Shown here piece by piece: positions 6,220-35,677 of a stretch of DNA of 47,361 bases. Every line of letters begins with the position of its first letter. Within the stretch, counting starts at the first letter, position 1. A program made the translations under genes and the position numbers. The notes under the pieces were generated by a model. That model was not told the DNA's origin. It searched no databases and saw only the letters and a program-made list of their open reading frames with translations. The DNA is from Eubacteriales bacterium. Lineage in GTDB: Bacteria; Bacillota; Clostridia; Oscillospirales; CAG-272. The stretch covers positions 1 through 47,361 of the forward strand of contig JAZUQN010000158.1 of NCBI GenBank assembly GCA_045605745.1. Direction: 5' to 3'.

Positions 6220-6220
6220 T

Positions 6221-7048: not shown

Positions 7049-7094
7049 ATAGGTTGTATTAAATCGGTTTTTAACCTGGCTTGGCTATACACAT

Positions 7095-7128
7095 AAAAAA
7101 GAGGCAGATTCAGAATCTGCCTCTTTTT
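7095..7128. terminator. bidirectional intrinsic terminator between birA and cotH-like gene
   Basis: AAAAAAGAGGCAGATTC-a-GAATCTGCCTCTTTTT, with an A-tract and a T-tract flanking a 12-bp stem. Confidence 0.8.
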
Positions 7129-7142
7129 AGCAATTTTATAAA

Positions 7143-8630: not shown

Positions 8631-8739
8631 ATAAAATCTCTCCCTTCCCGGAGAATTCCACATACATTATATCATCAGCAAAAGAATATGTCAATTTTAT
8701 TTTCAAAAGTCATAAAAAAAACAAAAATTAAACAAACTA

Positions 8740-9962: not shown

Positions 9963-9976
9963 GGAGGAAAAAGGAA

Positions 9977-10846: not shown

Positions 10847-10859
10847 ACAGAAAGGAGTT

Positions 10860-13594: not shown

Positions 13595-15010
13595 ATGATT
13601 TTTTCATCATACCGCTTTATTTTTGGATTTTTTCCAATAGTTTTTGCGGTTTTCTGCTTTTTGAGAACAATTAAAAAACCTTTGCTTATGAAAATTTGGC
13701 TTGTGACAGCATCACTTGCCTTTTATGCCATAGGTCAGGTTGATTTTTTTGTTTTTTTTCTGTTTTCTGTTTTCTTTAATTATCTGCTGATACGCATAAT
13801 TACAGCTTCAAACCAGAAAAAAAGTATTAAGCTCATTTGTCTTTTGCTATCAATTGCAGAAAACTTGGGACTACTGATATATTTCAAATATACAAACTTC
13901 ATCATAGAAAATCTTAACCGTATCCTGGGCACAAGCATAGGTGCTCTCTCTCTTATACTTCCTATAGGCATATCATTTTTCACTTTTCAGATACTCGCCT
14001 CTGTTGTTGCAGCTTATAAAGGAGAGATTGAAAATAAATCACTTGTGGATTATATGCTGTTCATCACATTTTTTCCTCAGCTTATAGTTGGTCCAGTGGT
14101 TATGCACCACGAGCTTCTCCCACAGCTGGAGGATCAGAAGCTCCTTACATATGACAAAAATGACATAATGAAAGGAATTATGCTATTTTCTATCGGTGCA
14201 GCAAAAAAGGTTATCCTTGCCAACCCGATGATAAATTTTGCAACAGCCTTTTATAGCGGTGATATCATATCCTCCGGCAGTGTCTATGCTTGGCTTGGCG
14301 TTATCTCATTTACCTTCGCTTATTATTTTGACTTTTCCGGATATGTGGATATGGCAAGAGGTCTTGGCCAGCTTTTCGGTATAAGGCTCCCCATAAACTT
14401 TGATTCTCCCTATAAAGCCCGGGATTTTGCCGATTTCTGGAGACGCTGGAATATAACCATATCCCGTTTTTTCAACGATACTGTTTTCAGCAATCTATTT
14501 GGTTTTGGTGACAGAATACCAAAGCTTATCTTTGCAACTCTTGCAACCTTTCTCGTTTCGGGAATTTGGCACGGCGCAGCGTGGCATTACATAATCTGGG
14601 GGCTTGTCTGCGGCATACTCGTTGCCATTTCCAACATTATGACTCTATATCGAATTAAGCTGCCTACCTTTATTTCATGCAGCATCACTTTTATTGTTAT
14701 GATGCTTGTGCGAGTATTATTTGATGCAGAGTGCATGACAGACGCTCTTCTGGTATACGGCAAGCTGTTTTCCTTTGATGGCGGCATCGGTACCCTTGTC
14801 ACCACTGTCACAGAGAATGTTTCTCTTATCCTGACCATAATTGCTTCCGCAGTCATCTGCTTCTGCTTTGAAAACGCAAATTCGCTTTGTCCCGAACAAG
14901 GAGAAGGCAAAAAATTAGGGGCACTGCATATAGTCTTTGCCGCATTTCTACTGGTTCTCTCTCTTGTTAATATGTCAAGCGTTTCAACATTTCTTTATTT
15001 CAATTTTTAA
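13595..15010 (+). CDS. MBOAT family O-acyltransferase (DltB/AlgI-like)
   Basis: 471 aa polytopic protein with MBOAT-type motifs (FWRRWNITISRFF, SGIWHGAAWHY including the conserved His). Confidence 0.85.
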   Translation: MIFSSYRFIFGFFPIVFAVFCFLRTIKKPLLMKIWLVTASLAFYAIGQVDFFVFFLFSVFFNYLLIRIITASNQKKSIKLICLLLSIAENLGLLIYFKYTNFIIENLNRILGTSIGALSLILPIGISFFTFQILASVVAAYKGEIENKSLVDYMLFITFFPQLIVGPVVMHHELLPQLEDQKLLTYDKNDIMKGIMLFSIGAAKKVILANPMINFATAFYSGDIISSGSVYAWLGVISFTFAYYFDFSGYVDMARGLGQLFGIRLPINFDSPYKARDFADFWRRWNITISRFFNDTVFSNLFGFGDRIPKLIFATLATFLVSGIWHGAAWHYIIWGLVCGILVAISNIMTLYRIKLPTFISCSITFIVMMLVRVLFDAECMTDALLVYGKLFSFDGGIGTLVTTVTENVSLILTIIASAVICFCFENANSLCPEQGEGKKLGALHIVFAAFLLVLSLVNMSSVSTFLYFNF

Positions 15011-15019
15011 GGGGATAAA

Positions 15020-16852
15020 ATGTCACTTAAAAAACAATTATCAATTTTTGCGGCAGCGTGCCTTGTTTTTGCACTGCTCTATGCCGCATTCAACGCTCTG
15101 ATCGATCCTTTTGGGGTGTTTGGAGACATTATCTTTGATTATTATGAATACAATATGACCCAAAATCCGCGAGTTGCCAAGATCGCTTATATTGAAAAGA
15201 ACAGCGAAAAATATGATTCATATATCTTTGGCTGTTCAAAGTCCTCCTCATATTCTGTGGAGGAGCTTAACGAATATCTTGATGCAAGCTTTTTCAATAT
15301 GTTTGCCTATGGCGGTGACCTTGCAGATATTGAAAAAATGGCTGCATATGTTATCGGAAACAAAGAGGTAAAAAACCTTGTGCTCGCCATAGGGCCTGAG
15401 GCGGCATATCGCTATGACAGCGAAGAGGATTCCATTAAGGATAATTTGCACTGCAAAGTCGATAAAAATATAAATCCGCTTTTGTTCTATGGAAAGTATC
15501 TTTTTCTCAACCCAGCCTACGCCCTTGACAAGATAGATTCTTATTTTAAAAGATCCTACCTTCCCGATGCCTCAAATGTTTTTATCCCCGAAAGCGGTGC
15601 TTATAACAAGAGTCGCAGAGATGCAATGTCCATCTCTCATATTGATACCTATTATTCGGATATGGCAGGGGCAGAATTTAATATGACTCATCCTCGTCCG
15701 CTTGATTATATTGATGAGGCAATATCGTCGGTTGAAGCCATAAAAAATGCCTGCGACATGGCAGGTATAAATTTCATTCTCATCGGATCTCCCATGTATG
15801 ACGGCGAAATCGCCTGCTATGACCCATATGAAATTGCTGAGCTAACAACAAAGCTCGCCAATGTCACCGAATTTTATAATTTCTGGGGCTACAACGCTTT
15901 TTCTCATGACGCCCGCTATTTCTATGACGGATATCATTTCAGAAATGCTGTTGGCAGTGCGGCCCTCGGCTATATTTTCGGAAACGAAAATATTTATATC
16001 CCCAAAAGCTTTGGCAGAATAACAAGCTCTGAAAGTGTTGATTTTGACCTTGTCCAAATGAACAATGAGTCCTTTGGCAAAGACGAGTTACTTGAAACGC
16101 AAATTCCAATTCTTATGTATCATGCACTCACCGAAAAGGAGGAGGAAGCAAGCTCCACCATCATCACTGTTTCTGCATTTGAAGAACAGATCTCTGCCAT
16201 CAGTGAGGAAGGATATACTGCAGTTTTCCTTGGGAATCTTATCTCCTATGTGGAAAATGGTGAGCCACTTCCCGAAAAACCTATAGTAATCACCTTTGAT
16301 GACGGATATACATCAAATCTCAGCCTTGCATTGCCTATACTGCAAAAATACGGTCAGTGCGCAACTACAAATGTTATCGGTGTAAGTATAGGAAAGGACA
16401 CATACAAGGACACGGGCAAAGAAATGTTCTCCCATTTCAGCCTCAAGGAAGCTAAAAAAGCACATGAAATGGGCATTTTCGATTTCCAATCGCACACATA
16501 TGATATGCACCAAAATTCCTATGACAGCGACCCGAGAGACGGTGTATTGCCAAAGTCGGGGGAAAAGGAAAAGGATTATATAGAGGCTCTTAAAAATGAT
16601 TTTGAACACTCAAAATCACAGCTTGAAGACGGTATTGGCAATAAGGTTTTTGCCATAGCATATCCTCACGGAAAATATACCGAGCTTACCGATGTGGTTC
16701 TCATGCAAAGCGGTGCAAAGGTCAGCATTTCCGTGGAGCCCGGAGTAAATTATATACTGAAAGGCTTGCCTCAATCACTAAGAGGCCTTTGCCGATTTAA
16801 TATGACAAATGAAATAAGCGGAGAAGAGCTTATAAAAATGATAACCCAATAG
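15020..16852 (+). CDS. fusion protein: DltD/SGNH-like N-domain + NodB-type polysaccharide deacetylase C-domain
   Basis: N-terminal TM anchor. The C-terminal half has NodB motifs ITFDDGY and SHTYDMH. The N-terminal half has FGCSKSS and DGYHF, which resemble the DltD Ser and Asp..His motifs; that part of the call is tentative. Confidence 0.65.
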   Translation: MSLKKQLSIFAAACLVFALLYAAFNALIDPFGVFGDIIFDYYEYNMTQNPRVAKIAYIEKNSEKYDSYIFGCSKSSSYSVEELNEYLDASFFNMFAYGGDLADIEKMAAYVIGNKEVKNLVLAIGPEAAYRYDSEEDSIKDNLHCKVDKNINPLLFYGKYLFLNPAYALDKIDSYFKRSYLPDASNVFIPESGAYNKSRRDAMSISHIDTYYSDMAGAEFNMTHPRPLDYIDEAISSVEAIKNACDMAGINFILIGSPMYDGEIACYDPYEIAELTTKLANVTEFYNFWGYNAFSHDARYFYDGYHFRNAVGSAALGYIFGNENIYIPKSFGRITSSESVDFDLVQMNNESFGKDELLETQIPILMYHALTEKEEEASSTIITVSAFEEQISAISEEGYTAVFLGNLISYVENGEPLPEKPIVITFDDGYTSNLSLALPILQKYGQCATTNVIGVSIGKDTYKDTGKEMFSHFSLKEAKKAHEMGIFDFQSHTYDMHQNSYDSDPRDGVLPKSGEKEKDYIEALKNDFEHSKSQLEDGIGNKVFAIAYPHGKYTELTDVVLMQSGAKVSISVEPGVNYILKGLPQSLRGLCRFNMTNEISGEELIKMITQ

Positions 16853-17103: not shown

Positions 17104-18129
17104 ATGGCAAAAGAAGCAAAAATCAAATGTCTCGTTTTTGACCTGGACTGCACCATCTGGGATGGCGTGCTATCTGAAGGCGGTGGAAAGAGGCTGATAG
17201 AGGGTATGCGTGAATTTATCCTTGAGCTTGACAGGCGTGGGATAATTATGAGCATTGCATCAAAGAATGATTTTGATGCGGCAATGGCAAATCTTCGTAG
17301 GTTTGGGCTTGAGGAATATTTTCTTTGTCCCTCTATCGGATGGGGTGCAAAATCAGATTCGATAAAAAGCATCATATTAGATCTTGGCATAAAGCCGGGA
17401 GCTGTTGCCTTTATTGACGATAATCCCTTTGAGCGTGACGAGGTGGCATTTGCACTGCCCGATGTGAGAACATATGATGCGGCCTGCTTTAAAACACTGA
17501 CAGGGCTTGATGAATTTACCCCCGTGTTCATAACCGAAGATGCAAAAAACAGAAGAAATATGTATCGGGCAGACTATAGACGAAAGGCAGATGAAGCCTC
17601 CTTTGGCGGCTCTGCAGAGGAATTTCTCAAAACTCTCGGAATGAAGCTCCAAATTTTGCCCGTTTGCGAAGATGACCTACAAAGAGTTCATGAGCTGACA
17701 CTCCGCACACATCAGCTAAACTCAACCGGATACACATATGATTTTGAACAGCTCAAAGCCCTTATCGATTCTGACAGTCATATTTTCCTGATAGCTTCTT
17801 TAAAGGATAAATACGGTGACAGTGGCAAGGTTGGCATTATGCTTTTGGAAAAGCATCCGGAGCATTATGCTCTCAAGCTGCTCATTGTTTCATGCAGAGT
17901 TATGTCAAGGGGAATCGGAACTGCGCTTTTAACATATGCAGTTAGGCGGGCAAACCAAGATGGAAAAAAGCTGTTTGCTGAGTTTAAGGAAACCGAGCAC
18001 AACAGAATAATGTATATCACATATAAAATGATGGGATTTGATGAGGTAAGTGAAAAGGGCGATGACATACTTCTCAGGTACGCAGAGGATGAGATCCCCT
18101 CTTTTCCGCCCTATCTTGAAATAGAATAA
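17104..18129 (+). CDS. HAD-IIIC family / FkbH-like protein
   Basis: HAD motif I FDLDCTIWDG, motif II IASKN, motif IV FIDDNPFERDEV. The C-terminal domain has VSCRVMSRGIG, typical of FkbH-like loaders. Confidence 0.75.
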   Translation: MAKEAKIKCLVFDLDCTIWDGVLSEGGGKRLIEGMREFILELDRRGIIMSIASKNDFDAAMANLRRFGLEEYFLCPSIGWGAKSDSIKSIILDLGIKPGAVAFIDDNPFERDEVAFALPDVRTYDAACFKTLTGLDEFTPVFITEDAKNRRNMYRADYRRKADEASFGGSAEEFLKTLGMKLQILPVCEDDLQRVHELTLRTHQLNSTGYTYDFEQLKALIDSDSHIFLIASLKDKYGDSGKVGIMLLEKHPEHYALKLLIVSCRVMSRGIGTALLTYAVRRANQDGKKLFAEFKETEHNRIMYITYKMMGFDEVSEKGDDILLRYAEDEIPSFPPYLEIE

Positions 18130-19808
18130 TGAAACGTATTTTAGTTTTTATTTGCATAGCTTTTTCTCTTTTTTTCTGTTCTTGCGAAAATCGCTCTCCT
18201 TTCCCGGTAAATAACACAAATTCTCCACAAAGTAAGAATAATCATACCTCCTCCATAAATATCACTGAGGTAGGTGTTAGTATATGCGGCGAAAGCATTA
18301 ATATCCAGAAGGATGCAGGCGGCAGTGGCTTCACCCTATATCTTCCGGCGTTTTCGGGAGATGCAGTATGGATTCTGCCCCATAAAACATTGATTATGGG
18401 CAAAGAAGCTTCAAGTGGTGACAGTGCAGATGTGCTATATAGTGCATCTAAGATAGAAATTGCAGGACAAAGCGTCAAAATAATGCGCTCCGCCAATATC
18501 CCTTCGCTGTTTTTAAATTCTGATGAGGGCACTATGTCAAACATAGATAATAGTCCCGATCATTCCTACGGAACTCCGGGAGATTTTTCCCTCATCTCAT
18601 CCGATGGCGAGCTCCTTTCGGCAGGAAGGCTTAAAAAGATTCGCGGCAGAGGAAATGCCACATGGCACGGAACGGAGAAAAAGCCTTATCAAATTGAATT
18701 TTCATCTTCTGTGTCAATTTTAGGTCTTGCCAAGTCCAAAAAATATATTTTGCTTGCAAATTATTATGACCCTTCTCTTATGCGCAACAGCATCGCCTTT
18801 GACATTGCTAAGATATCGGAAGATTATTCAGTTTCAGGCGAGCCAATTGACCTTTATGCCTGCGGTGAATATCTTGGGGCTTATCTTATTTGTGAAAAAA
18901 TCGATATTTCGGAAAACAAGATTGATATTTTTGATCTTGAAAAGGCAACCGAAAAAGAAAATGCCGAAAATCTTGAAAATTATGAGCGCGGCGGTAGTGT
19001 TTTGGGCACAGAGAACGGAAGCTCAAAATGGTTTAGCTTGCCAAATGACCCTGCCGACATAAGCGGAGGCTATCTATTAGAGGTCGAATATACCGAGCGA
19101 TATCCTGAGGAGGTAAGCGGATTTGTTACAAGCAGAGGCTTGCCCGTTGCAATTGTATCTCCAAAATATGCATCAAAAGCGCAGGTAGAATACATAAAAA
19201 ATTTCTTTTGTGATTTTGAGGATGCCTTGTATTCGCCAACCGGTTATAATGAAAAGGGCAAGCATTACAGCGAATATGCTGATATAGATTCGATTATATT
19301 CAGATATTTATTTGAGGAATTTGCCCTGAACATAGATGGTGGTATTTCAAGCTTTCACATCTATAAGGACACCGATAAAAATGGGGGAGAGCTGATTTTT
19401 TCCTGCGTTTGGGACTATGACTGCTCCTTTGGAAATTATAATAAGCATGCTGATCTGACATCCTTTGAAACCCTTTTCACAGGAGAGAGCGAAAGGCGAA
19501 ATCAAGGGGCGATGCCTTCATATTTCAACGCAATGCTGGGACATGATGAGATTGTATCGAGAGTTAGAGATTATTATAAAAATATATTCAGAAAAGGAGC
19601 TTTAGAGGCGCTTGCAGACATCGATCGCCGATTTGAATACATAAAAGCATCAGCAGAAATGGATGCATGGCTTTATTCTTCTTTTTCTGCTCACAGCTTT
19701 TATGGAGCAAACTGTGGAAGTACTCCAAGTGAGGCCTGTAATTATTTAAAGGATTTCATAAGCGGACGAATCAAATTTTTCGATATGCATTTCGGATATG
19801 ACGGATAA
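18129..19808 (+). CDS. CotH family protein, predicted lipoprotein (second paralog)
   Basis: Lipobox LFFCSCEN. CotH-like motifs KKPYQIEF, MRNSIAFDIA and CVWDYDCSFGN. TAATG overlap with the upstream stop. Confidence 0.75.
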   Translation: MKRILVFICIAFSLFFCSCENRSPFPVNNTNSPQSKNNHTSSINITEVGVSICGESINIQKDAGGSGFTLYLPAFSGDAVWILPHKTLIMGKEASSGDSADVLYSASKIEIAGQSVKIMRSANIPSLFLNSDEGTMSNIDNSPDHSYGTPGDFSLISSDGELLSAGRLKKIRGRGNATWHGTEKKPYQIEFSSSVSILGLAKSKKYILLANYYDPSLMRNSIAFDIAKISEDYSVSGEPIDLYACGEYLGAYLICEKIDISENKIDIFDLEKATEKENAENLENYERGGSVLGTENGSSKWFSLPNDPADISGGYLLEVEYTERYPEEVSGFVTSRGLPVAIVSPKYASKAQVEYIKNFFCDFEDALYSPTGYNEKGKHYSEYADIDSIIFRYLFEEFALNIDGGISSFHIYKDTDKNGGELIFSCVWDYDCSFGNYNKHADLTSFETLFTGESERRNQGAMPSYFNAMLGHDEIVSRVRDYYKNIFRKGALEALADIDRRFEYIKASAEMDAWLYSSFSAHSFYGANCGSTPSEACNYLKDFISGRIKFFDMHFGYDG

Positions 19809-19835
19809 TCCCGATATTACGATGATAACAAATAA

Positions 19836-19868
19836 AATGGCTGAGACAAAGACTCAGCCATTTTTGAT
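19836..19868 (+). terminator. intrinsic terminator of MBOAT/CotH operon
   Basis: AATGGCTGAG-acaaaga-CTCAGCCATT followed by TTTTGATTTT. Confidence 0.75.
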
Positions 19869-20054: not shown

Positions 20055-21155
20055 TTATAATACCTTTTCAAGCCACTCAACCGCTGCTACAACATATTGC
20101 TTCAGTGATTCAGTATTTACCATAACAACAAGTGCTGCCCAAAGCAGATTGTTTATAAGGCTGAAGAACCACTTATTGTGTCTTGCAAAAATATTAACCT
20201 TATATTGGAATCTCTTTACAAGCGATGCCAACTTATTTTCAAGCGTCTTCTTATTAAAATCGACAATATAAAGATACTGCTTTTTGCTCTGCGGATCTTC
20301 AAAGCAAGGTTCATCCTCAATAACAGGATGTCGAATAAGAAAACTGTTAATATCCTTGAAATGGTCCTTGAAATTATCCATTGTATCCGAATCAAAAATG
20401 TTAAGCGCCTTGCCAAGACCGGCAACATACATTCTGATCCTTATCCAGCGAATATAGAAAATTATAAGTGTGATTGCTTTTAGCGCAGGAATAAATGTAA
20501 GGAGCAGACCAAGACTGTTTATGATAAACTCAATTGTGGGCTTTTCTGCTGCTGCAGCAAGCTCGCCCGCAAGCCAAGTGTCAAGAAAATACTTTGCTCC
20601 AAAGAACACCGCTATCAAGGGCAGAATAATTCTGATAAGCACATTGACAAAATGATGTCCGAATTTTGTATTGAACACCTTGGAGTTTTTATCCTTTACA
20701 ACCTCTATCTCCTCATCTCTGCGATTTCTGGTCATCTGACAGTTGATAAAGAAGCTGTCAAGAGTTCCATCAAGAAATGTTTTGTAAAACTCCTCTATAT
20801 CTGCCGGAGTTTCATAATCATCCTCGAAAAAGCTTTTGATAAACCCAACCGGCAAGAGCTCTTCGTTAAATTTCACAAAATAGTTATCGATAATGCGAGT
20901 AGTTACACCATTCAGCTTTTTCGGCTTATCGTGATTGATCATATAATAATACGGATCGTTGTTGAAATAGTCCAAAAATTCTTCATATGTATTTGCATCA
21001 ACACACTTATTCTGCCTTATGCTAAGCAATACATTATCTGATTCGTTGGAATGGCTCTCATATTCATTTCTCGCAATTTTATTATAGAGCCACTTATATG
21101 CCTGCTTCTTGACATAGTTAGTCACTCTGCGATCCCTGGATGTAATCGAGTACAT
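20055..21155 (-). CDS. hypothetical polytopic membrane protein (366 aa), last gene of cluster
   Basis: GAAGGAG RBS. A ~165-aa soluble N-domain is followed by hydrophobic helices (FVNVLIRIILPLIAVFFGA, IINSLGLLLTFIPALKAITLIIFYI, WFFSLINNLLWAALVVMV). I recognise no family motif. Confidence 0.7.
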   Translation of the reverse strand: MYSITSRDRRVTNYVKKQAYKWLYNKIARNEYESHSNESDNVLLSIRQNKCVDANTYEEFLDYFNNDPYYYMINHDKPKKLNGVTTRIIDNYFVKFNEELLPVGFIKSFFEDDYETPADIEEFYKTFLDGTLDSFFINCQMTRNRRDEEIEVVKDKNSKVFNTKFGHHFVNVLIRIILPLIAVFFGAKYFLDTWLAGELAAAAEKPTIEFIINSLGLLLTFIPALKAITLIIFYIRWIRIRMYVAGLGKALNIFDSDTMDNFKDHFKDINSFLIRHPVIEDEPCFEDPQSKKQYLYIVDFNKKTLENKLASLVKRFQYKVNIFARHNKWFFSLINNLLWAALVVMVNTESLKQYVVAAVEWLEKVL

Positions 21156-21204: not shown

Positions 21205-23721
21205 TCATGGAGCTTTTTCTGCTCCGGTATCAGGCGCAGAGGTGCTTTCGGGCGCATCTGTGCTTTCTTCTGTAGATTCTTCAGCTGTTTCATCATTAGC
21301 ATCACTTTCAGGGACACTGTCTAAAGCCTCAGTATCTGTGCCTCTATCAGTGTCTGTGTCAGTTGATATGCCACTGTCATCTCCTCCAAAAAGGTTTTCA
21401 GGCTCTTTCTTTGTATCAGTGCTGATATCCGTTGTGTCAGATTCACTTTCAGAATCTGCTCCGGAAATCACATCCGAAACTGCAGGAGTATCAGTCCCAC
21501 CCACAACGTCGGTATCCTTTGGAGCACCGCCGCCGAAAAGCCCGAATTTGACCACAACAATAGCAACCAAAACAGCCACAATTGCCACGCCCACAACTAT
21601 TGGTGCAATGGGTGCGGATTTTCCAATGACAACCGGAATATCGCTTTTATGTGAGCAATAGTTTTTCCAAACTTTCGATAGCATTTCAGCAAAAGCTTTA
21701 GTGTTTTTGCCGCAATTTCGTGTATCAATGCCGGCAATTCGATTTGTGATGCTATCCGAAAGCGCCTCTGGCATATTTTCAATACCTTTTAGCCTTAGTC
21801 TAACAATATTTGAAACTGCATTTGTGCACGCCAATGCTACTTCAAGCTCAAGATTATCATATGCCTCGCAATTTTCACCGAAGACAAATTTTATAAGCTC
21901 AATCATAACTGCATTTAACGGCAGATATGCAGCCATAAATTTAACAGAGGTAACAAGGTCAATTTTCCCTACCACAAGGGCAACCTGAATTATGAAATCA
22001 CCACCGTGCATCCTGCAAATATCATCAACAATATTCAAATGAGGCGAGTTTTCATCAGGCTTTGCATAAAGAACATACTGCTCAACGGCATTCTTTAAAG
22101 TGTGCTTATCATTTGCAAACAATTTACAAACGTTGCTGAGCGCAACAACAGTGTCAGGTGACTTTGGTGTGTTGAGAGCTTCTCTATATGCGCCAAGCAC
22201 CCTCATCTTCTCCTCGATTGTAACGCCCGTAGGTCTTTCAATCTTTGGAGGATAGGTTTCATTATGCTTTTTAAGATATACGCCTGCCATAGATTTGATG
22301 TAAGGTGCCATATCATAGCCCTTGGCCTTGGCATCCTCCAAGATCTTGCCGCATCCATCAACGAGCCACGCTCTTGCATTTGCAAGCCTGTCATCGGTAA
22401 TATGCTCGTGCGGAACATTAGGACGCTGCATCATATCTGCTACGGTTTTCTCAACATCGTTCTTTAAAGCTTCGATTTCGGCAATTCTGTTTTGCACAGC
22501 CGAAGCCATAGCGTTAAATGCTCTGTAAAACTCAACCTTATAGAAGGCTGCAGAGCTGTCTTCAAGAGGCTTAAAACTGTTTTTCAGCTTTCCGATAAGA
22601 GCATCATCAAGCTTTTGAACCTTAAAAAATTCAACAAAAATATCACGAATAGCTACAAATGCACTTTCCGGACACATCGCACAAAGCTTTTTAATGCCCA
22701 GTGTGTTCTTTTTAAGGAGTGATTGGTGGTCGATCATTTCATCAACACTTCCTATAGAAAACGGCTTAAATCCGTCAAAGTGTCCCGAGAGATTTTGCAA
22801 AACAAAATTCGGTATATCCTTGCTTGTTGGATTTTCCAGAGTGATAAGATACTCATCAAGCAGCTTTTCACAAAGATCAGCATCATTTTTTACATAGGCC
22901 CTGAAAAACTCCACAAACTGCTTTGGCTTATAGTTTGAACCGAAGCCATTGCAAAAGATATCATATTCTGCAAAAAGCTTTCCAACCTCTTCCGCACTAT
23001 CCCTCATCGCTCCAACAAGATGACTGACTATTCCGGTAAATTCCGGAATAACTGCCCCTTCATACGCAGAATCGTTTAAAGGAATCCTGACACCGCTTGC
23101 ATTTTTTGCCAAGCTGAGTGGCAGAATGCGAACTCTGAAGCTTTCAGCATCCGGAACACCTGTTATAAACGAGCAAGATTTTTTAAGAGTCGGCGGCATA
23201 TATCTGAAAAGCTTATACATCAAAATGCGAGCATACTCATTGCTATAAAGCTCGTCACTGACTGCGATAATAATGCTCTCGCCATTATAGATACGAGCAA
23301 GTATTTCAGTTGCAGCCTGAGCCGACATAGGAATATTATCGGAGCCTTTTGCATAGAGCTCTATATCCACTCCGCCAATAGCTCCGGGCATTTCTCCTTG
23401 GCGCAAGGCATCAATCGTGCCCTGCTCTGCAAACATCGCAAGCAAATTTTCTTCAAAATTTTTGCTTTGATAATAGCCTTTGACAGCCTTTTGATATATT
23501 CCGTGGATATAATATGCCTCGCGGTTATAGCTTGTGTCCTTTTTGGCACTAAAGAACAAGGGCTGATTGCTGTTTGCTCCAAAGGTCATAAAGCCATAGG
23601 CATCAATATTTGCATTAATATTAATTTTTATCAGCTCTCTGACTCTTGCCGCCTCATTTTGATCATCGGCAAAGAGCACACCATAGCCATTATTCTTGTC
23701 ACTTCCAAAAATAAATTGCAT
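21205..23721 (-). CDS. hypothetical 838-aa tail-anchored protein with acidic S/T/D-rich C-terminal tail
   Basis: No signal peptide. A ~700-aa mostly helical region is followed by a single TM helix (IAPIVVGVAIVAVLVAIVVV, about 21550-21618). A 114-aa D/E/S/T-rich tail follows (21208-21549). Confidence 0.75.
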   Translation of the reverse strand: MQFIFGSDKNNGYGVLFADDQNEAARVRELIKININANIDAYGFMTFGANSNQPLFFSAKKDTSYNREAYYIHGIYQKAVKGYYQSKNFEENLLAMFAEQGTIDALRQGEMPGAIGGVDIELYAKGSDNIPMSAQAATEILARIYNGESIIIAVSDELYSNEYARILMYKLFRYMPPTLKKSCSFITGVPDAESFRVRILPLSLAKNASGVRIPLNDSAYEGAVIPEFTGIVSHLVGAMRDSAEEVGKLFAEYDIFCNGFGSNYKPKQFVEFFRAYVKNDADLCEKLLDEYLITLENPTSKDIPNFVLQNLSGHFDGFKPFSIGSVDEMIDHQSLLKKNTLGIKKLCAMCPESAFVAIRDIFVEFFKVQKLDDALIGKLKNSFKPLEDSSAAFYKVEFYRAFNAMASAVQNRIAEIEALKNDVEKTVADMMQRPNVPHEHITDDRLANARAWLVDGCGKILEDAKAKGYDMAPYIKSMAGVYLKKHNETYPPKIERPTGVTIEEKMRVLGAYREALNTPKSPDTVVALSNVCKLFANDKHTLKNAVEQYVLYAKPDENSPHLNIVDDICRMHGGDFIIQVALVVGKIDLVTSVKFMAAYLPLNAVMIELIKFVFGENCEAYDNLELEVALACTNAVSNIVRLRLKGIENMPEALSDSITNRIAGIDTRNCGKNTKAFAEMLSKVWKNYCSHKSDIPVVIGKSAPIAPIVVGVAIVAVLVAIVVVKFGLFGGGAPKDTDVVGGTDTPAVSDVISGADSESESDTTDISTDTKKEPENLFGGDDSGISTDTDTDRGTDTEALDSVPESDANDETAEESTEESTDAPESTSAPDTGAEKAP

Positions 23722-23782: not shown

Positions 23783-25366
23783 TTAAATAATACGGTCGGT
23801 TCTGAGGATTCTGAGGAACGGAAGACCTGCAAGGAAACCGTGATGGATTACAGGAGCACCGGCCGAGCCCTCATCTGCCTCTTTTGCCGCATCGCATCCA
23901 TAAGGGGCAACGGGAATAAAATATTTTTCAACTCCTGCTGCGCCCACATTCAAATTGTTAAGAACTCCATAAAGAGCAGGATTCTGCTGCATAAGATATT
24001 GATTGGAAAAATGATTTATCATATCATATTCCTGCTGCTGCCAATTTGAGCCACCAAAGAAGTTGACCTCACTCTTTGTCATAATTACATTGAACATTTG
24101 ATCTGTGTTTGGACGGCCGCGAAGAGCATCAACCTTGTTTGCAACATATATGATACTTCCAAAGCGCTTGCGATCCGGAAAGGACATATGCCAAGCAAGG
24201 CTCTGGCTAAGATCCATAATATTGAAGCGCACGTTTTCCTCGGGTGCCGGCAGCATCTCGTCGATTTGCTCGGGCGGCAGGAAGAACATAACATGACGAG
24301 CACGTGTAATAACTCGTCTGGACTTATAAACATAGTCATCATCGGTACCTGCACCGTTTATAAATTTCTCTCCCGGCCAGTCGATAAAGGAATAGATAGT
24401 GTCTTTAACCTTCAGGTTAAGAATTGGCACATTTTCAAAGTCGGTTTTAACCGGTGCAAGACCTGCATTAAATCTGCCGATATTGTTCATAAACGCATTC
24501 AGGTTAAAATCGTTGGTAAGAGTTGATGTTGCGATCTTCATATCGCTTATAAATGGCTGCTTTGAAAGAACGGTGTTAAGCAGTGCAAGAAGATATGATG
24601 TCTTTCCGGCAGAGTGTGAACCAAGGAGCACAACCGGCTTCATTTTATAATAGCCGAACTCCATTGGAAATTCCTTGCCGCAGAAGCGGCAGCACTTTTT
24701 AAGTCTGCCCCAAACTCCGCCATGCTTAACAAACAGAATATCGGGAACATGATAGCCTTCAATGCCGTTATTACAGGAGCTATAGATGCAAACCTTAAGA
24801 TCAAGGCTGTCTTTTGGCTCTGAGTTCATTCTGTTTTCATAGATGTGGGTGAGAATTTTTATTGCAGTTCTGACAAACTCATCGTCAATACTGATATCTC
24901 CCACAAGCTTATCCGAAACGCCGAAAAGCACATGATAAAGAGTGCTTATCTGAGAAAGCTGAAGAGGAGTTATGCTGCCAAAATTGTTTTCATCAACAGC
25001 ATCCTGAAGCTGATCAAGAATGGCATTAAGCTCTTTAGCGTTATATCCGGATTTTGAAAGTATGTATTCATAAAGGATCTTTCCGTTTACAAGAAATGAG
25101 AAAGCGGTATCATTAAAGCCGGGGCCTCCGGGATTTCCACATTCAAGAAGTTGGGGAGAATCATGCTTATTGGATTTGAGAATAACCTCCTCATCCACAT
25201 AATACTTAAATTTAACCTGTCTCACCGCTTCTTCATCATTTGTATTGTTATAAAGCAGGGGCAAAACATATTCTGACATATCAAAGGCCACATCATAGCC
25301 AAGGAAACGCTCGCCGCAATTAGGGCAAATTATATCATGCATAAATAAACTCCTGTCTGCCGCCAA
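23783..25366 (-). CDS. zinc-ribbon-containing P-loop GTPase (TRAFAC-like motifs)
   Basis: CPNC at codons 14-17 (25316-25327) and CCRFC at 225-229. G1 GSHSAGKTS (24596-24622), G3 DWPG (24371-24382), G4 NKVD (24128-24139). Confidence 0.75.
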   Translation of the reverse strand: MAADRSLFMHDIICPNCGERFLGYDVAFDMSEYVLPLLYNNTNDEEAVRQVKFKYYVDEEVILKSNKHDSPQLLECGNPGGPGFNDTAFSFLVNGKILYEYILSKSGYNAKELNAILDQLQDAVDENNFGSITPLQLSQISTLYHVLFGVSDKLVGDISIDDEFVRTAIKILTHIYENRMNSEPKDSLDLKVCIYSSCNNGIEGYHVPDILFVKHGGVWGRLKKCCRFCGKEFPMEFGYYKMKPVVLLGSHSAGKTSYLLALLNTVLSKQPFISDMKIATSTLTNDFNLNAFMNNIGRFNAGLAPVKTDFENVPILNLKVKDTIYSFIDWPGEKFINGAGTDDDYVYKSRRVITRARHVMFFLPPEQIDEMLPAPEENVRFNIMDLSQSLAWHMSFPDRKRFGSIIYVANKVDALRGRPNTDQMFNVIMTKSEVNFFGGSNWQQQEYDMINHFSNQYLMQQNPALYGVLNNLNVGAAGVEKYFIPVAPYGCDAAKEADEGSAGAPVIHHGFLAGLPFLRILRTDRII

Positions 25367-25399
25367 GGGCGGCTTTTTTTATTTTTACTTAAAAGTTGA

Positions 25400-26062
25400 T
25401 CAGTTTCCTATAAGCGACGAGAGATAAACCACGTCATTTATCTGATTTTTATCAAATTCCTTATCAAGATAATATGTTGAGCCGCCCGGCAGAACCGAAT
25501 AAACCTTTTCGTTGTCAAAGCTGCTGACAATAACTCGGCGTTTGTCGCCGGCATCCTTAAAGGAAAGGGTTTGATAATTCTTTTTAGCCAGCTTGTCAAA
25601 AAGACTTGGCTGTGTGAGATCATATTCTATTTTTTTATCCGGGTCTATGGCAAATACCTTTGGCTCAAAGGATTTTTCGCCGTAAACACAGACTAAAAAC
25701 ACCTTATTGATATCTGTCACCGGGAAGCGCATTTGCTGAACAAAGAATATACCGCCTCCGCTGTTAAGTTGATATTTATTGATCCAGCACTTATTCTGAT
25801 TTGCCGGATTATTATAATAGGCTTCTATATTGCTGATCCTGTTTTGGGGCGATGAAATATCGAACATCTGTCGGTTGATCCACTGTATTATTTCATCCTG
25901 TGTGAAAATAGTGTCACGAAGCAGCTGACTTTCCGGAATAGTACAGCAAAACACTGTACAGCTCGGCAAAGGAGCTCCGTTTTCATATTTCCACTTCCAG
26001 CTCAGATTGACCTCAAGATGATCCTCTGTTGCCCCAGAAGTAACCATTAAATTTTCAAACAT
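25400..26062 (-). CDS. hypothetical protein (220 aa)
   Basis: Clean ORF in the operon with no TM helix or signal peptide. It looks beta-rich and has no motif I recognise. Confidence 0.65.
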   Translation of the reverse strand: MFENLMVTSGATEDHLEVNLSWKWKYENGAPLPSCTVFCCTIPESQLLRDTIFTQDEIIQWINRQMFDISSPQNRISNIEAYYNNPANQNKCWINKYQLNSGGGIFFVQQMRFPVTDINKVFLVCVYGEKSFEPKVFAIDPDKKIEYDLTQPSLFDKLAKKNYQTLSFKDAGDKRRVIVSSFDNEKVYSVLPGGSTYYLDKEFDKNQINDVVYLSSLIGN

Positions 26063-26116: not shown

Positions 26117-27766
26117 TCAAAACACTAAATATTTACCGATTCTCTGGCTGATATCAACAGAAAACGTACCGCCAACAGAGAAGCTGTATGTATAATCCTT
26201 GCAGAATGAGGGAACAACCGAAAACAGCGGGTCAAAGGAAGATGTTTCGTATGTATACTGTTTTTCGTTTTCAGCCCCAAGCGTGGAAACATATCTGTCA
26301 TAAGCTCCCTTAATAACATTGCATATCTCAAAATCATCTGCCGCATTAATAAGACGGTGAGCTGCAAAGGAAAGGAAGTTGTCCGAATCAATGTTAACAG
26401 CTTTGTTAAAGGCAAGCTCTCTCTTGAGCGAATCAATCTTTCCAAGCATTTCTCTTGAATATGATATCTGAGGCTCAAAACAGGAGGGATTCTGCTCAAT
26501 ATATTCTATAACTTCCTTCCAAAATTCCTGTTTTTTTAGCTCTCCGTCATAATCAATATATCGCCTTATATATTCGGGCAGGTCCACTTCAACATTGTTA
26601 TCGGTCTTGATAAATTGCTGAATTGCGTAATACTTTGCTTCGATCGCCTTTGTGTGAGCTTCGATATAATTATTAAGAAGCATAAGAACTTCGCCATATA
26701 TATTGGGAGAATGATACTGCTTCGCCTTATCAAATATAGATCTCGCAGCCTCAACAACCATAAGCTCGGTGAATCTCTTGTGCATTCGGAGGTTCACCTT
26801 TAAGGTAAGCTCAACAACCTTGTCACCGCCAAATCCGTTTAAATCATAGCACTGATTGAAATAATTTTGCAGGCACATCTCTTCGCTGACCTTAACGGTT
26901 GTAACACGGGGGATCATTTTAACTGCGTGCTCAAGTCTGCGCATCAGCGCCGTATTATCTGTTACATTCACCTGTCTATAGAAAAACTCATCGCAGAACG
27001 CTGTAATATCGACCTTATTAAACGGAGCTGCATTGCAATACAGCTTATACACATAATATCGCAAAAAGTCCATTTTATCATCATTATATGATGCTGAGAG
27101 AGTTGACCAGAATATTTCCTCTCTTGCTTCCATCTCTTTTTTGCCCTCTTCGGGAAAAGCGAGAATATTAGCCTCAACCAAGCTGTTTGTGGCACTGAAA
27201 TTCATTTCTACGCTTTGTCCGATACGCTTTGAGTGGTTAAGAAGAAGAGCACCGCAAATGTTATCAATAATCTTCGATTCTTGATGTTTTCTTTTTGCAA
27301 AAGCATAAATACGTACCCTCTCGGAAAGTCCTTTGCCCTCAAGCGCTCTCATATAGGAGCCGGCTTTTTCCTTATCCTCAGGCATAGTAAGTGCAAGCAT
27401 CAGTCGGTCGCCATGCTCCATAAAGCCACCGCTTGATAGTGTCTTCACAGCCAGGGAAACCGCCTCGGATATATCATTATCCTCATAATCAAACACGAGA
27501 ACAAAGCAGGTACTTGTATGCTGACCAAAACGGTATGCCGGTCTTTGACGGAGATAGTCGCCAAGACCGCTGTCACCTGCTGCACTAAGCTCAAAATCAG
27601 CTTTATCAAATGCATTTTTGCTGATATAATGCTCAACGCTGCCCTGCAGCTGACCGCTATAATAAGCATCCTTTGCAAAATTCAAAAGAACTATATAATA
27701 ATTCTCATCAGCGTTAAAGCTGCCTGCCCCAACGCCAAAAACATTTCCATATAATTTACTAAACAT
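26117..27766 (-). CDS. hypothetical protein (549 aa); possible degenerate tubulin-like N-domain
   Basis: Clean ORF. The N-terminus NVFGVGAGS ... CFVLVFDYEDND has strand-loop spacing like the T1/T4 elements of the neighbouring tubulin-like protein but lacks the glycine signature. This is speculative. Confidence 0.65.
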   Translation of the reverse strand: MFSKLYGNVFGVGAGSFNADENYYIVLLNFAKDAYYSGQLQGSVEHYISKNAFDKADFELSAAGDSGLGDYLRQRPAYRFGQHTSTCFVLVFDYEDNDISEAVSLAVKTLSSGGFMEHGDRLMLALTMPEDKEKAGSYMRALEGKGLSERVRIYAFAKRKHQESKIIDNICGALLLNHSKRIGQSVEMNFSATNSLVEANILAFPEEGKKEMEAREEIFWSTLSASYNDDKMDFLRYYVYKLYCNAAPFNKVDITAFCDEFFYRQVNVTDNTALMRRLEHAVKMIPRVTTVKVSEEMCLQNYFNQCYDLNGFGGDKVVELTLKVNLRMHKRFTELMVVEAARSIFDKAKQYHSPNIYGEVLMLLNNYIEAHTKAIEAKYYAIQQFIKTDNNVEVDLPEYIRRYIDYDGELKKQEFWKEVIEYIEQNPSCFEPQISYSREMLGKIDSLKRELAFNKAVNIDSDNFLSFAAHRLINAADDFEICNVIKGAYDRYVSTLGAENEKQYTYETSSFDPLFSVVPSFCKDYTYSFSVGGTFSVDISQRIGKYLVF

Positions 27767-27821: not shown

Positions 27822-28538
27822 TTAAATGATATTTACAAAATCCATAAGTGAGAAATTGCAGAAAAATCTGAATATATATGAATTTTCTGCAAGAGAAGAA
27901 AGAAGCGCATTATATTGTTCTATAAGTCCATATTCAACAACGACGCTAAGCGCAAGGCAGATGATCCATGTGTAAGCAAATGCACTGATAACTCCAAGAA
28001 CAAAGCCAAGAATACCATTTGCCTGTTTAAGCACAGGAAGCTTAACAAGTCCGCCCACAATTATCTTAACGATGATCATAGCAATGTAAGCGGCGACAAA
28101 TACAAGCACACATCCGATAGCAGAAGCAAGTGTCTCTGCAACCGGAAGAGCAATTTCATTTGCAAAATTTTCAAGGTCCGCCTCTGTAGCAACGGTCATT
28201 TTGCCAAAAACAGCTTTAAGAGCATCGATGTTTGCGCCTGTTCTGTCGAGAAGATCAACAAAGCCCTCCGGGAGCTTTTCAAACAGATCGCTTATGCTGA
28301 GAGCTCCGTCGCCTTCACCCATAAGCTTTTTTAGAAGTCCCTTTACAACCCCTGTTACGTGGCTCTGAAGAGGCTCACCAAGAAAAAGCCTGCCAACCTT
28401 TGGGCCAAACAAATATGCCGAAGCAAAGGTTACAACGGTTGTTAGAAGATTCAAAATTGTTTTGCATCCTCTTTTGGTGTTGACAAATATCACAAGCAGT
28501 ATAAATGCCACCAAAATAATATCAAGAATCCAGTTCAT
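27822..28538 (-). CDS. CvpA family membrane protein
   Basis: MNWILDIILVAFILLVIFVNTKRG is a typical CvpA N-terminus, and the protein has four or five TM helices. AAAGGAG RBS precedes the ATG at 28538, so the track start at 28628 is rejected. Confidence 0.7.
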   Translation of the reverse strand: MNWILDIILVAFILLVIFVNTKRGCKTILNLLTTVVTFASAYLFGPKVGRLFLGEPLQSHVTGVVKGLLKKLMGEGDGALSISDLFEKLPEGFVDLLDRTGANIDALKAVFGKMTVATEADLENFANEIALPVAETLASAIGCVLVFVAAYIAMIIVKIIVGGLVKLPVLKQANGILGFVLGVISAFAYTWIICLALSVVVEYGLIEQYNALLSSLAENSYIFRFFCNFSLMDFVNII

Positions 28539-28561
28539 GAGAAGCTCCTTTCGATTGTGTA

Positions 28562-28598
28562 TGTCAAAAAATCTATAAAATCGGCACAGAATGCCGAA
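28562..28598 (-). terminator. weak terminator-like hairpin upstream of the cvpA-like gene
   Basis: On the minus strand: TCGGCA-ttctg-TGCCGA followed by TTTTATAGATTTTTT. The stem is only 6 bp. Confidence 0.3.
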
Positions 28599-28697
28599 TT
28601 TTATCCTAATCAATATCAAATTTAACAAGGATTCGCGGCATGGCGCTTTTACAAAAGCACAATATCGCCAAGCCTTATTTTTCCTTAATTACGCTTA

Positions 28698-32362: not shown

Positions 32363-34915
32363 TTAAAAATAGCTTTCTGTTTGCTGGAATGCGTGGCTGT
32401 TTCCGAATGTGAGAGTGTAGTTTCCATCAAAGGTTCTCACAGAGACATTGCCGGATTTAAAGATATGAACGCGGGGAGCCTTCTTTTTATTGGTGGGATC
32501 CTTTGAAATGATCTTAAATGACTTTTTAAAAGGAATACCTGTTAAGGTTATGTTATCTGCATAGCTTTCGATAAAGGTTCTCAGGTCATTTTCATTCATA
32601 GTTCCGTATTGAGGATTACTGTAACCGGGAGTTGTGAGTATTTGTCTCATAGACATAACAGGCTTTGAGTTTTTCTTGCCGGAAAGTCTTGGAATAGCAT
32701 ATACAACCTCGGTTGTCTGATATGATTCACCGTCAACTTTTTCAAGCTTGATCTTAAAGGCCATGGAAATGATCTTTTTGTGGTTGACGAAGAGAAATGC
32801 GAGAACCGCAAGGACTGCAAGAACCAAAACCACAACGATTATTGTAACCAGCACCGGAACAAGAGACTTAACCGACACCTTAATTGTATAAACATACTCT
32901 GCGCCGTCACCATCGGTCACAATAAGGGAAATAATACTTGAACCGAAATCACCGGACTTGATTGTAAGCTTTTCACCTGTAATGCTTGCAGTGATAGCAG
33001 AATCGCCCTCAAGCTTAACATTATAGCTAAGCGGATCTCCGTCAGAATCGCTGAATATACCTGCAAAATCGATTATCTCTTCAAAGCTGCCGGAGAACGC
33101 ACTCTTCTCTATCTTATTCTTGAGAGTTCCGTTCATGCGAATCTGAGAAGCGATAAAGTCTATCTCAACGGCCTCAGACTCAACAGCGACAACATCAAGA
33201 TGACCAACCTTAGCCTTAAAGGTATACTTACCTACCGAAGCAGGAATATATGACTGAACATACTCTCCGCCCTCAAACCGAGCCATATCGATATCGATCT
33301 TTTCAACCTCTGCGCCGTCCTTTGAAACGACAAGTGTCAGATTCTGAGAGGTGATATAGGCCGGGATCGAAGCAGAAGCCGAGCCTGTCACAGGGTCAAC
33401 GAATTTGAGAGAAACATCAGGGTCACCCTCAACATCGGGGTCGTTCACAGCAGAAACAACAAGCTTAGGTCCAACAACATTAATGTTGGCCTCACTCACT
33501 ATCTCATACTGAGAATGCTTTAAAAGTGTCTTTATAACATATTCACCGGGAGCAGCAAAATCCAGCTCGTAAACATATCCGTTTCCGTTTTTATTGAGAG
33601 TTCCGTTAACGGTTTTCTCATTGCCGCCGCCAACCAAGTGATAAATAACACTTGAAGAAGCACCCTCGTCAGGAGAATAAAGACCAACAGAATCAAGATG
33701 GATATTGTTTTCGGAATTATAAAGTGTGGCTTCAAAGCCAAACTTGTTGCCCACATATACATCATCTGCAGGAATGTTATCACGAACAGCAAGGCCGAAA
33801 AGGAATATCTTTCTTTCGATAACAGTGCTTTGCTCACCTGTTACAAGCACCTTCCAATCTCCGCCCTCGGGAGCAAGGAGCTTAACGGTTGCAGAATGTG
33901 CCATGCCTGTATAGTTTACAATGCAAAGATCCTTTTCGATTTTGTTCTTTGTAGGATTCTCAATGTCAATATCAGCAACAACATTTCCTGCAGGGTTCAA
34001 AACCTTTATGGTCTTGAGACGAGCACCGCTGGAAAGACTGATATTAGCTTCTTTAACTGCATTTGCGTAAATATTTATAACACGCTCTGATACCTCGCTT
34101 GGAGAAACAGCAAAGGATTCCTTATCCTCATCCAGCTTGGTATTCTCAAAGAGGTATGTATATATCTCCGAAAAAGCATCCGAGATCTGATTTGCATTTT
34201 CGATTATCTTTATGTTATTAGTCTTATCAACGCTGTCAACGCCGTGAAGCTTTGCAAGAAAGCTCTTGTCAATATTTCCCTTTCCTCCTGCATCAAGACC
34301 GATAGAATAAAGCTGAACTCCGGCATCCTTAAGCTTTGTGGCACTTGCAAAGGCTTTGTTTTCAGAAGCTTTCTCGGCAGCAGCACCTTCCTTAAGGTCT
34401 ATCTTTCCGTCCGTAAAGAGGATAACCGCCTTCTTCTCGCAATTTGAAGAAGAGAGAATTGCATTGGCTGCGCTGTCAAGAGCAAGACCGATATCGGTAT
34501 AGGAAACATAATTCCAGCAAGCAATTCCGGGAACAAGGTCTTGGCCTGCAGCATTATCCTTGTCATTTTTATCAAGGAGAATATCCTGCATATACTGCAT
34601 ATATTCGCCAAGGCCGCTCTCCTCGGAGACATTCACCTTATCAAGAACGGTGCATATCTCGTGATGATAGGGGATGATCTTTACATACATATTCGTCTGA
34701 GGGGAGCAGTTGAAAACAAACTGCTGCGCCGCCTCAACAGAAAGACGGCCTCCCGATTCTGTTAGAGGATCCGAATATCTTGCCATCGATCCGCTGACGT
34801 CGAAAAGCAAAACCACCTCAACATCATCAGAAGCTTCTGCCGCAATAGGAAGTGCCATACACACAAGCACTGCCGCAAACAGGATTAAACAGGCGATTTT
34901 TCTAAAGTGATTCAT
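32363..34915 (-). CDS. secreted vWA (MIDAS) domain protein with Ig-like repeats, one TM helix and a 140-aa cytoplasmic tail
   Basis: Signal peptide MNHFRKIACLILFAAVLVCMALPIAAEA. MIDAS DVSGS (34787-34801) and ILFTDGK. A long beta-rich region is followed by the TM helix LVPVLVTIIVVVLVLAVLAVLAFLFV (about 32786-32863) and the tail (32366-32785). Confidence 0.8.
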   Translation of the reverse strand: MNHFRKIACLILFAAVLVCMALPIAAEASDDVEVVLLFDVSGSMARYSDPLTESGGRLSVEAAQQFVFNCSPQTNMYVKIIPYHHEICTVLDKVNVSEESGLGEYMQYMQDILLDKNDKDNAAGQDLVPGIACWNYVSYTDIGLALDSAANAILSSSNCEKKAVILFTDGKIDLKEGAAAEKASENKAFASATKLKDAGVQLYSIGLDAGGKGNIDKSFLAKLHGVDSVDKTNNIKIIENANQISDAFSEIYTYLFENTKLDEDKESFAVSPSEVSERVINIYANAVKEANISLSSGARLKTIKVLNPAGNVVADIDIENPTKNKIEKDLCIVNYTGMAHSATVKLLAPEGGDWKVLVTGEQSTVIERKIFLFGLAVRDNIPADDVYVGNKFGFEATLYNSENNIHLDSVGLYSPDEGASSSVIYHLVGGGNEKTVNGTLNKNGNGYVYELDFAAPGEYVIKTLLKHSQYEIVSEANINVVGPKLVVSAVNDPDVEGDPDVSLKFVDPVTGSASASIPAYITSQNLTLVVSKDGAEVEKIDIDMARFEGGEYVQSYIPASVGKYTFKAKVGHLDVVAVESEAVEIDFIASQIRMNGTLKNKIEKSAFSGSFEEIIDFAGIFSDSDGDPLSYNVKLEGDSAITASITGEKLTIKSGDFGSSIISLIVTDGDGAEYVYTIKVSVKSLVPVLVTIIVVVLVLAVLAVLAFLFVNHKKIISMAFKIKLEKVDGESYQTTEVVYAIPRLSGKKNSKPVMSMRQILTTPGYSNPQYGTMNENDLRTFIESYADNITLTGIPFKKSFKIISKDPTNKKKAPRVHIFKSGNVSVRTFDGNYTLTFGNSHAFQQTESYF

Positions 34916-35031: not shown

Positions 35032-35061
35032 ATTATATCATACAATTCCACTATTTGTCAA
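35032..35061 (-). promoter_or_regulatory. SigA-type promoter of vWA/tubulin-like cluster
   Basis: On the minus strand: TTGACA (35056-35061), 18-nt spacer, TGaTATAAT (-10 at 35032-35037). Confidence 0.55.
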
Positions 35062-35584: not shown

Positions 35585-35677
35585 CGGAGGTTTTTGATAT
35601 GATCCTTGACAGGCGATGGCGAGCTTTTTAAAGCAACCCTAAAGCAACTTTTTCAAGAATTTTGGAGGATAATGATC

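Follow-up and report, generated by a model that had tools for sequence, protein, structure and literature searches.

The sixth gene of a membrane-associated eight-gene operon encodes a GTPase that probably serves as the nucleotide switch of this operon, gating a tubulin-like polymer via a zinc-clamped lobe; we put the probability of this reading at about 70%. The operon lies in the window, that is, the entire stretch of 47,361 nucleotides from an Eubacteriales bacterium that was analyzed here. Motif conservation and a structural model together show a protein with the TRAFAC GTPase fold and intact G1, G3, and G4 motifs, predicted to be guanine-specific. The class of systems to which it belongs has already been described in silico, as FtsZl1 proteins and neighboring DO-GTPases are known from genome comparisons since 2010 and 2020; what is new at the level of sequence is a putative split zinc site, together with four partner proteins that belong to no known family. 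Searches of the literature and PDB revealed no solved structure, biochemical assay, phenotype, or other experimental work for any member. The window contains a compact, well-delimited eight-gene version, with a confident model of the GTPase, invariant residues, and about 20 syntenic relatives.

Gene structure and conserved motifs

The open reading frame at 23783–25366 that the earlier note had pointed out does exist, but it is encoded by the minus strand and its TTG is probably not the start. The plus-strand reading of the same interval was rejected, its translation being riddled with stop codons. Translated from the TTG, the frame comprises 527 codons and contains GSHSAGKTS, DWPG(E), and NKVD, as well as cysteines at codons 14/17, 193/198, and 225/226/229. 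The true start is almost certainly, judging by sequence context, the ATG at 25342 (codon 9 of the TTG frame), because AGGAG is situated 7 nt upstream of it and most homologs open with MHDIICP at this point; the TTG candidate sits within a GC-rich intergenic hairpin. The protein therefore has 519 residues, and residue numbers in the earlier note exceed ours by eight (K255 and D413 become K247 and D405). All features are listed in Table 1.

Table 1. Features of the GTPase gene and the surrounding cassette, listed from upstream to downstream on the coding strand (positions in the window).
Feature	Position	Strand	Description and basis
Promoter-like TTGACA-18-TATAAT	35032..35061	-	Upstream of the vWA gene; 12/12, with TG; consensus match only
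vWA protein, 850 aa	32363..34915	-	Signal peptide, extracellular vWA, Ig-like region, one TM segment, cytoplasmic tail of ~140 aa
Tubulin-like protein, 1190 aa	28762..32334	-	Tubulin_2 = FtsZl1 family, Pfam E 2e-40
CvpA/Colicin_V-like membrane protein	27822..28538	-	Pfam E 5e-12; listed ORF reaches 28628
X549	26117..27766	-	Conserved cassette gene, matches no known family
Y220	25400..26062	-	Conserved cassette gene, matches no known family
Shine-Dalgarno AGGAG	25350..25354	-	7 nt upstream of ATG 25342; read from sequence
GTPase CDS	23783..25342	-	519 aa + stop; ORF list, RBS, 64-member family
First zinc knuckle (putative), C6-P-N-C9-G	25313..25327	-	Within MHDIICPxCG; fixed residues 64/64
Inter-knuckle insert, residues 22–200	24743..25279	-	~180 aa, mostly helical by AF2 secondary structure
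Second zinc knuckle (putative), C217-C218-R-F-C221-G	24677..24694	-	C218 and C221 64/64, C217 56/64
G1/P-loop GSHSAGKTS, residues 241–249	24596..24622	-	Residue conservation
Probable switch I (G2), K299-T300-D-F	24437..24448	-	K299 and T300 invariant, 64/64; G2 inferred from position
G3/Walker B DWPGE, residues 321–325	24368..24382	-	Family-defining Glu325; conservation, DO-GTPase definition (PMC7159879)
G4 NKVD, residues 402–405	24128..24139	-	Guanine-specificity motif; N402, K403, and D405 invariant, 64/64
APYG, residues 479–482	23897..23908	-	Candidate G5 equivalent, following the last core strand
Conserved C-terminal helix FLAGLPFLRILRTDRII	23786..23836	-	Alignment; preceded by a linker of variable length
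Z838	21205..23721	-	Directly downstream partner, fast-evolving; cytoplasmic domain of ~700 aa, one TM segment, acidic/polar tail
W366	20055..21155	-	Last cassette gene; membrane protein with 2–4 TM segments, no known family
Terminator-like hairpin	19834..19864	-	Downstream of W366; consensus match only

In a word-index search, 64 further proteins of the family came up at 32–70% identity, of which 63 are full length. The conservation counts given here refer to an alignment of 64 full-length family members, the window protein included. The claim that this is a GTPase with G1, G3, and G4 motifs was confirmed, the motif residues being retained in 62 to 64 of the 64 sequences. In the P-loop, G241, S242, K247, T248, and S249 are identical throughout and G246 is kept in 62 sequences. 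Within DWPGE, residues D321, W322, G324, and E325 are invariant (64/64), and P323 is found in 63 sequences. The same holds for APYG, with P480 and G482 in all members and Y481 in all but one. The C-terminal helix (residues 507–515) is modeled by AF2 at high pLDDT.

Fold and family of the GTPase

The AF2 model of the GTPase, built on a 35-sequence alignment, is a single compact body (pLDDT 87.6, pTM 0.87). The listed top Foldseek matches among PDB and viral models are all GTPases (aEF1A/EF-Tu, G-alpha, Arf, Ras-like), with E-values from 4e-6 to 1e-4 and probability 1.0. The query-normalized TM-scores of these matches, 0.2–0.27 at 9–16% identity, are low because the G domain alone aligns. The window protein shares the G-domain fold and the order of motifs with EF-Tu/aEF1A, G-alpha, and Arf; in contrast, the N-terminal module, with its putative zinc site and helices, and the C-terminal helix found no PDB counterpart with Foldseek. 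The position of Ras Gln61 is occupied by Glu. Sequence searches of PDB with the single GTPase sequence and with the family profile returned no useful match.

The assignment to TRAFAC-class GTPases, made previously from the motifs, is thus supported by the Foldseek matches together with the conserved G motifs. Both checks that the earlier note had proposed, structural classification and conservation of cysteines, yielded a GTPase and not an ATPase fold and four conserved knuckle cysteines; hence, the observation stands.

DO-GTPases, or double-GTPases, are TRAFAC GTPases that have a conserved Walker B Glu and often one or two N-terminal zinc ribbons (Kaur et al., 2020; PMC7159879). By sequence, the GTPase domain of the family groups with DO-GTPase2, the window protein itself falling just below the Pfam cutoff: it scores 24.7 bits (E 2e-5) with the DO-GTPase2 profile (PF19993), for which the cutoff is 27 bits. 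The same profile matches 30 of 35 family members at E ≤ 0.01 (best E 8.4e-9), and DO-GTPase1 matches only four of them; at the first knuckle, Zn_ribbon_3 gives matches in 4/35. The Walker B hallmark of DO-GTPases, a Glu directly after DxxG, is present (E325, 64/64). A PADLOC candidate, the dynamin-like defense GTPase LeoA, was rejected, as the match is confined to a 44-residue P-loop stretch with E 0.0026. NCBIfam yielded zero matches for all eight cassette proteins.

The eight-gene cassette

The operon is transcribed from the minus strand in the order vWA850, Tub1190, CvpA-like, X549, Y220, GTPase, Z838, and W366. In the vWA domain of the first protein, the DxSxS motif is present as DVSGS (residues 39–43). 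The Ig-like region of this protein produces faint matches to Big_9, Filamin, and YtkA (E 0.39 for YtkA), and its cytoplasmic tail measures 128–146 aa throughout the relatives. Tub1190 conserves the nucleotide-binding glycine motifs GLGGxG and GxGGGxGSG and is extended at its C-terminus by about 800 aa; a PDB sequence search with this protein gave nothing useful. The CvpA-like gene is optional, since among the related loci it was observed only in L008, L009, L011, and L016, and its homologs begin aligning at query residues 23–33.

The gene directly downstream of the GTPase in the related loci always encodes a protein of about 800 aa with a TM segment and a polar tail. All relatives of Z have one C-terminal TM segment, followed by a tail of 34–305 aa that is 55–81% polar; the topology of W is likewise kept, with 2–4 TM segments throughout the relatives. 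Z838 is a candidate for a GAP1-like protein. Pfam detected neither GAP1-N2 nor GAP1-C in Z, X, Y, W, vWA, or their orthologs from five loci, the sole GAP1-M signal being a faint match (E 0.039) in one of 15 Z proteins. Similarly, there was no Pfam match to fn3/FNIII repeats in X, Y, Z, W, vWA, or their relatives. When 1.84 billion representative proteins were searched exhaustively with a profile of Z, only about 65 true relatives emerged, alongside low-complexity matches to the tail; the distant relatives found in this way are also devoid of GAP1 domains. The AF2 model of Z, based on a 5-sequence alignment, is poor (pLDDT 66, pTM 0.41), and its Foldseek matches are non-significant helical repeats. 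An all-against-all hhalign comparison of the cassette families identified no hidden second GTPase and no other paralogy.

Comparison with described systems

FtsZl1 operons were described as combining vWA proteins with an intact MIDAS, a diverged P-loop GTPase, and many membrane proteins (Makarova and Koonin, 2010, Biol Direct; PMC2875224). The GTPases of these operons carry motifs of the Walker A, Walker B, and [NT]KxD types and, in some cases, a fused Cys-rich domain; the function proposed for the operons is membrane remodeling (PMC2875224). FtsZl1 was linked to Tubulin_2 in PMC9871819. By sequence, the window operon is a member of this FtsZl1-vWA-GTPase class on all counts of the 2010 description: its Tubulin_2 gene is linked to a MIDAS-bearing vWA gene and to a P-loop GTPase with NKxD. 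The likeness extends to the diverged state of the GTPase, the Cys-rich element, and the membrane proteins without a family, whereas the OmpA and protein-kinase genes of the described operons are absent from the window cassette. Further, the Cys-rich fusion was likened in PMC2875224 to the DnaJ cysteine-rich domain, while the knuckles of the window protein (CPxCG/CxxCG) are of the zinc-ribbon type and split.

Such operons were later placed among the GAP1-N2-type GTPase-centric conflict systems (Kaur, Burroughs, Iyer, and Aravind, eLife 2020; PMC7159879). The defining partners in these systems are an FNIII-repeat protein and GAP1, which consists of N2, M, and C domains and whose gene follows that of the GTPase; the DO-GTPases of these systems have two N-terminal zinc ribbons (PMC7159879). 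In the tubulin theme of Firmicutes, there are two tubulin-domain genes with a C-terminal coiled-coil and a pair of vWA proteins, one fused to YtkA and the other bearing TM segments, with its vWA domain outside the cell (PMC7159879).

The window cassette matches idiosyncratic details of this theme. Its GTPase has the Glu after DxxG and a putative N-terminal zinc-ribbon element; the Tubulin_2 protein has a long, presumably helical C-terminus; the extracellular vWA domain, TM segment, and faint YtkA/Ig signal are combined in one protein; the downstream protein, Z838, has a C-terminal TM segment and a highly polar tail; and two tubulin genes are present in a relative, L003. Hence, the pairing of a tubulin-like protein with a GTPase, which had been regarded as unusual in the earlier note, is not so: it recurs in at least 12 related loci and has already been published as the hallmark both of FtsZl1-vWA-GTPase operons and of the tubulin theme among DO-GTPases (PMC2875224; PMC7159879).

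On the other hand, the window carries a single tubulin gene and a single vWA gene where the theme has a pair of either kind, its GTPase scores below the Pfam threshold for DO-GTPase2, and one putative split Cys site with an insert of about 200 aa takes the place of two ribbons. None of X549, Y220, and W366 corresponds to a component described for GAP1-N2 systems. The idea that the gene belongs to a GTPase-centered conflict system, considered previously, therefore holds in part: the GTPase domain agrees with it (DO-GTPase2 in 30/35 members, Walker B Glu), but GAP1-N2, GAP1-C, and FNIII are undetected by HMMs in the window cassette.

Proposed mechanism and biological role

In the proposed mechanism, the putative Cys4 site would staple residues 1–21 to the hairpin at 210–225, just ahead of strand beta1, and the helical insert of about 180 aa would thereby be fixed to the G domain as a rigid lobe, beside the P-loop/switch region, where it would offer a docking surface. 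Switch I (KT300DF) and switch II (DWPGE325) would report the GTP/GDP state, which would control binding of the lobe and switch surface to the membrane-anchored Z838 and/or the tubulin-like protein. Partner binding, in turn, would decide whether the tubulin-like polymer assembles at the membrane. The upstream signal may come from the extracellular vWA/Ig sensor, with its conserved cytoplasmic tail as the likely transmitter. The biological purpose could be either a threshold switch in conflict or defense (Kaur et al., 2020) or membrane remodeling (Makarova and Koonin, 2010).

The sparse distribution of the cassette, its variable flanks, and its fast-evolving partners favor a conflict role. Subfamily-specific patterns were found at only 15 loci among 185,579 species genomes, and each of these loci belongs to an uncultured member of Clostridia or Eubacteriales that came from termites or an animal gut. 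The order of the cassette genes is kept in at least 12 related loci, on contigs carrying homologs at 27–68% identity. None of the genes flanking the cassette in the window recurs beside any other copy examined, and tblastn of the GTPase against plasmids gave no match. When the window is compared with the closest locus (L006), the slowest-evolving cassette gene is the GTPase (68% identity), followed by Tub (62%), Y (50%), W (47%), vWA (40%), and X (38%), and the fastest is the immediate downstream neighbor Z (30%).

The absence of a recognizable effector and the ordinary chromosomal setting, in contrast, favor a cellular role. The same switch might then operate in a lineage-specific housekeeping machine of Clostridia, involved in envelope or membrane remodeling, sporulation, or cell shape, and not in a conflict system. 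The locus lies on the chromosome amid ordinary genes, mobile-element genes are absent from its vicinity, and its promoter-like site is a perfect match of the sigma-70 type; no toxin-like effector is recognizable in the cassette and PADLOC reports no matching system; conservation is high for both the GTPase and the tubulin-like protein. In the window, the cassette is bordered by genes of the envelope or spore-coat type (CotH, deacetylase, MBOAT), SpoVT adjoins it in L001, and membrane remodeling is what Makarova and Koonin proposed. Nevertheless, we consider this reading rather unlikely, given a distribution as sparse as the one above, flanking genes that differ at every locus examined, and the fast evolution of the outward-facing and partner components Z, X, and vWA, which is typical of conflict systems.

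More doubtful still is a broader reading of the whole cassette, according to which it would be a distinct transmembrane signaling and cytoskeletal apparatus, separate from DO-GTPase systems of the GAP1/FNIII type. Here, the single split ribbon would clamp a lobe that binds partners onto the G domain, X549, Y220, Z838, and W366 would represent four new families, and the GTPase would itself license or nucleate the polymerization of FtsZl1 upon a signal from the extracellular vWA sensor.

The putative split zinc module

The lobe of the proposed switch would depend on four cysteines, C6, C9, C218, and C221, all of which are invariant (64/64), as are P7 and G10. We infer that they form one putative Cys4 zinc site, because of the cysteine pattern, its invariance, and the compactness of the model. 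The earlier observation that pairs of cysteines bracket a helical insert was thus borne out by the alignment and by the AF2 secondary structure; two further cysteines pointed out there (193/198 in the former numbering) are not conserved, C185 being found in only 10 of 64 sequences and position 190 being commonly occupied by residues other than Cys. The spacing between the knuckles is 200–238 aa in all 64 homologs. In the AF2 model, short strands flank the knuckles (residues 3–5 and 12–14 for the first, 210–217 for the second), and the second knuckle ends about 10 residues ahead of strand beta1 (232–241), which enters the P-loop. The CPxCG/CxxCG pattern and the predicted flanking strands fit a zinc ribbon. 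Four invariant cysteines point to a single site, interrupted by about 200 residues, instead of two ribbons, which is a modest new structural detail.

It is improbable, in our opinion, that the four cysteines do not share a site and that the knuckles are remnants of two zinc ribbons with other ligands, such as His2 or Asp3, or bind no metal. Two N-terminal ribbons were indeed described for this class by Kaur et al. (PMC7159879), and H2 and D3 are also invariant (64/64), so that MHDIICPxCG is constant at every fixed position. But the number of invariant cysteines is only four, with C217 open to substitution, and neither knuckle has a second conserved set of ligands close by. Moreover, both knuckles share the pattern CxxCG-x-x-F on predicted hairpins, as would be the case for two halves of one ribbon, and the model forms one compact body with pTM 0.87.

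Two distant relatives at 26–27% identity, L017 and L019, have a degenerate P-loop, G3, and G4 but keep the CCxxC knuckle and every fixed residue of MHDIICPxCG; both are situated outside the cassette, L017 standing alone. As the knuckles are kept where the G motifs decay, the N-terminal module is more constrained than the nucleotide site in the wider family. The fact that the putative zinc module outlasts the GTPase motifs, as well as the contrast between the slowest-evolving GTPase and its fastest-evolving downstream partner, is useful for the design of experiments and leaves the current picture of FtsZl1/DO-GTPase systems unchanged. A scaffold or pseudo-GTPase, with its main function in the N-terminal module and dispensable GTP hydrolysis, might be suspected from the knuckles retained in L017 and L019, but it is very unlikely for the cassette, as the degenerate relatives are located elsewhere and the nucleotide-binding residues, including the Walker B Glu, are conserved across the cassette-linked family (64/64, with 62 for G246 and 63 for P323).

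Variation among cassette proteins

The vWA protein is almost uniform in the length of its cytoplasmic tail, which measures 128–146 aa in 10 of 10 relatives, against an extracellular part ranging between about 660 and 1100 aa. Such a contrast suggests that the tail is a conserved intracellular signalling domain. Three further cassette proteins, X549, Y220, and W366, match no family in Pfam, NCBIfam, or PADLOC. Y220 carries the conserved motifs WxW, FCC, and LVCVY.

The CvpA/Colicin_V-like gene is found in only a subset of cassettes, namely those of the window and of contigs L008, L009, L011, and L016. Since alignments with homologs of its product begin at query residues 23–33, the true start of the gene is probably the ATG at 28538 rather than the TTG at 28628. 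The number of Tubulin_2 genes also varies: contig L003 has two side by side (929–7540; 991 and 1183 aa), matching the paired arrangement that Kaur et al. reported in Firmicutes, whereas the window has one.

Distant relatives of the GTPase (26–27% identity) are encoded on contigs L017 (3708–5261) and L019 (1736–3004). Both retain the MHDIICPxCG motif and the CCPxC knuckle, and in both the P-loop, G3, and G4 motifs are degenerate; the L017 relative appears to be solitary, not part of any cassette. Another homolog, P0065 (638 aa; contig L005, 4541–6457), has an insertion of collagen-like G-X-Y repeats, situated in the variable linker that precedes the conserved C-terminal helix.

Intergenic and flanking regions

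The TTG chosen by the ORF finder as the GTPase start falls within a GC-rich hairpin. When read on the plus strand, this hairpin is terminator-like, and no plus-strand gene in the window ends at it.

Features of the cassette and its surroundings in the window
Feature	Position	Strand	Remark
CvpA/Colicin_V-like membrane gene	27822–28628	-	optional cassette member
GC-rich hairpin, GCCGCCAAGGGCGGC	25359–25373		inside the 57-nt gap from the Y220 stop to the GTPase ATG
vWA protein cytoplasmic tail	residues about 705–850 (gene 32363–34915)	-	
X549	26117–27766	-	conserved in cassette, many loci
Y220	25400–26062	-	conserved in cassette, many loci
W366	20055–21155	-	conserved in cassette, many loci
Two CotH-kinase-like genes, MBOAT gene, polysaccharide deacetylase gene	7143–8663, 18129–19808, 13595–16852	-, +, +	
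ABC transporter plus accessory genes (ABC_transp_aux, DUF4340)	8808–13357		
T-box leader RF00230	35295–35556	+	110 bits vs. gathering score 93

The CotH-kinase-like, MBOAT, and polysaccharide deacetylase genes are all located downstream of the cassette. At its other end, the T-box leader lies a short way past the cassette promoter region and precedes a gene for a PALP-fold enzyme (35606–36898).
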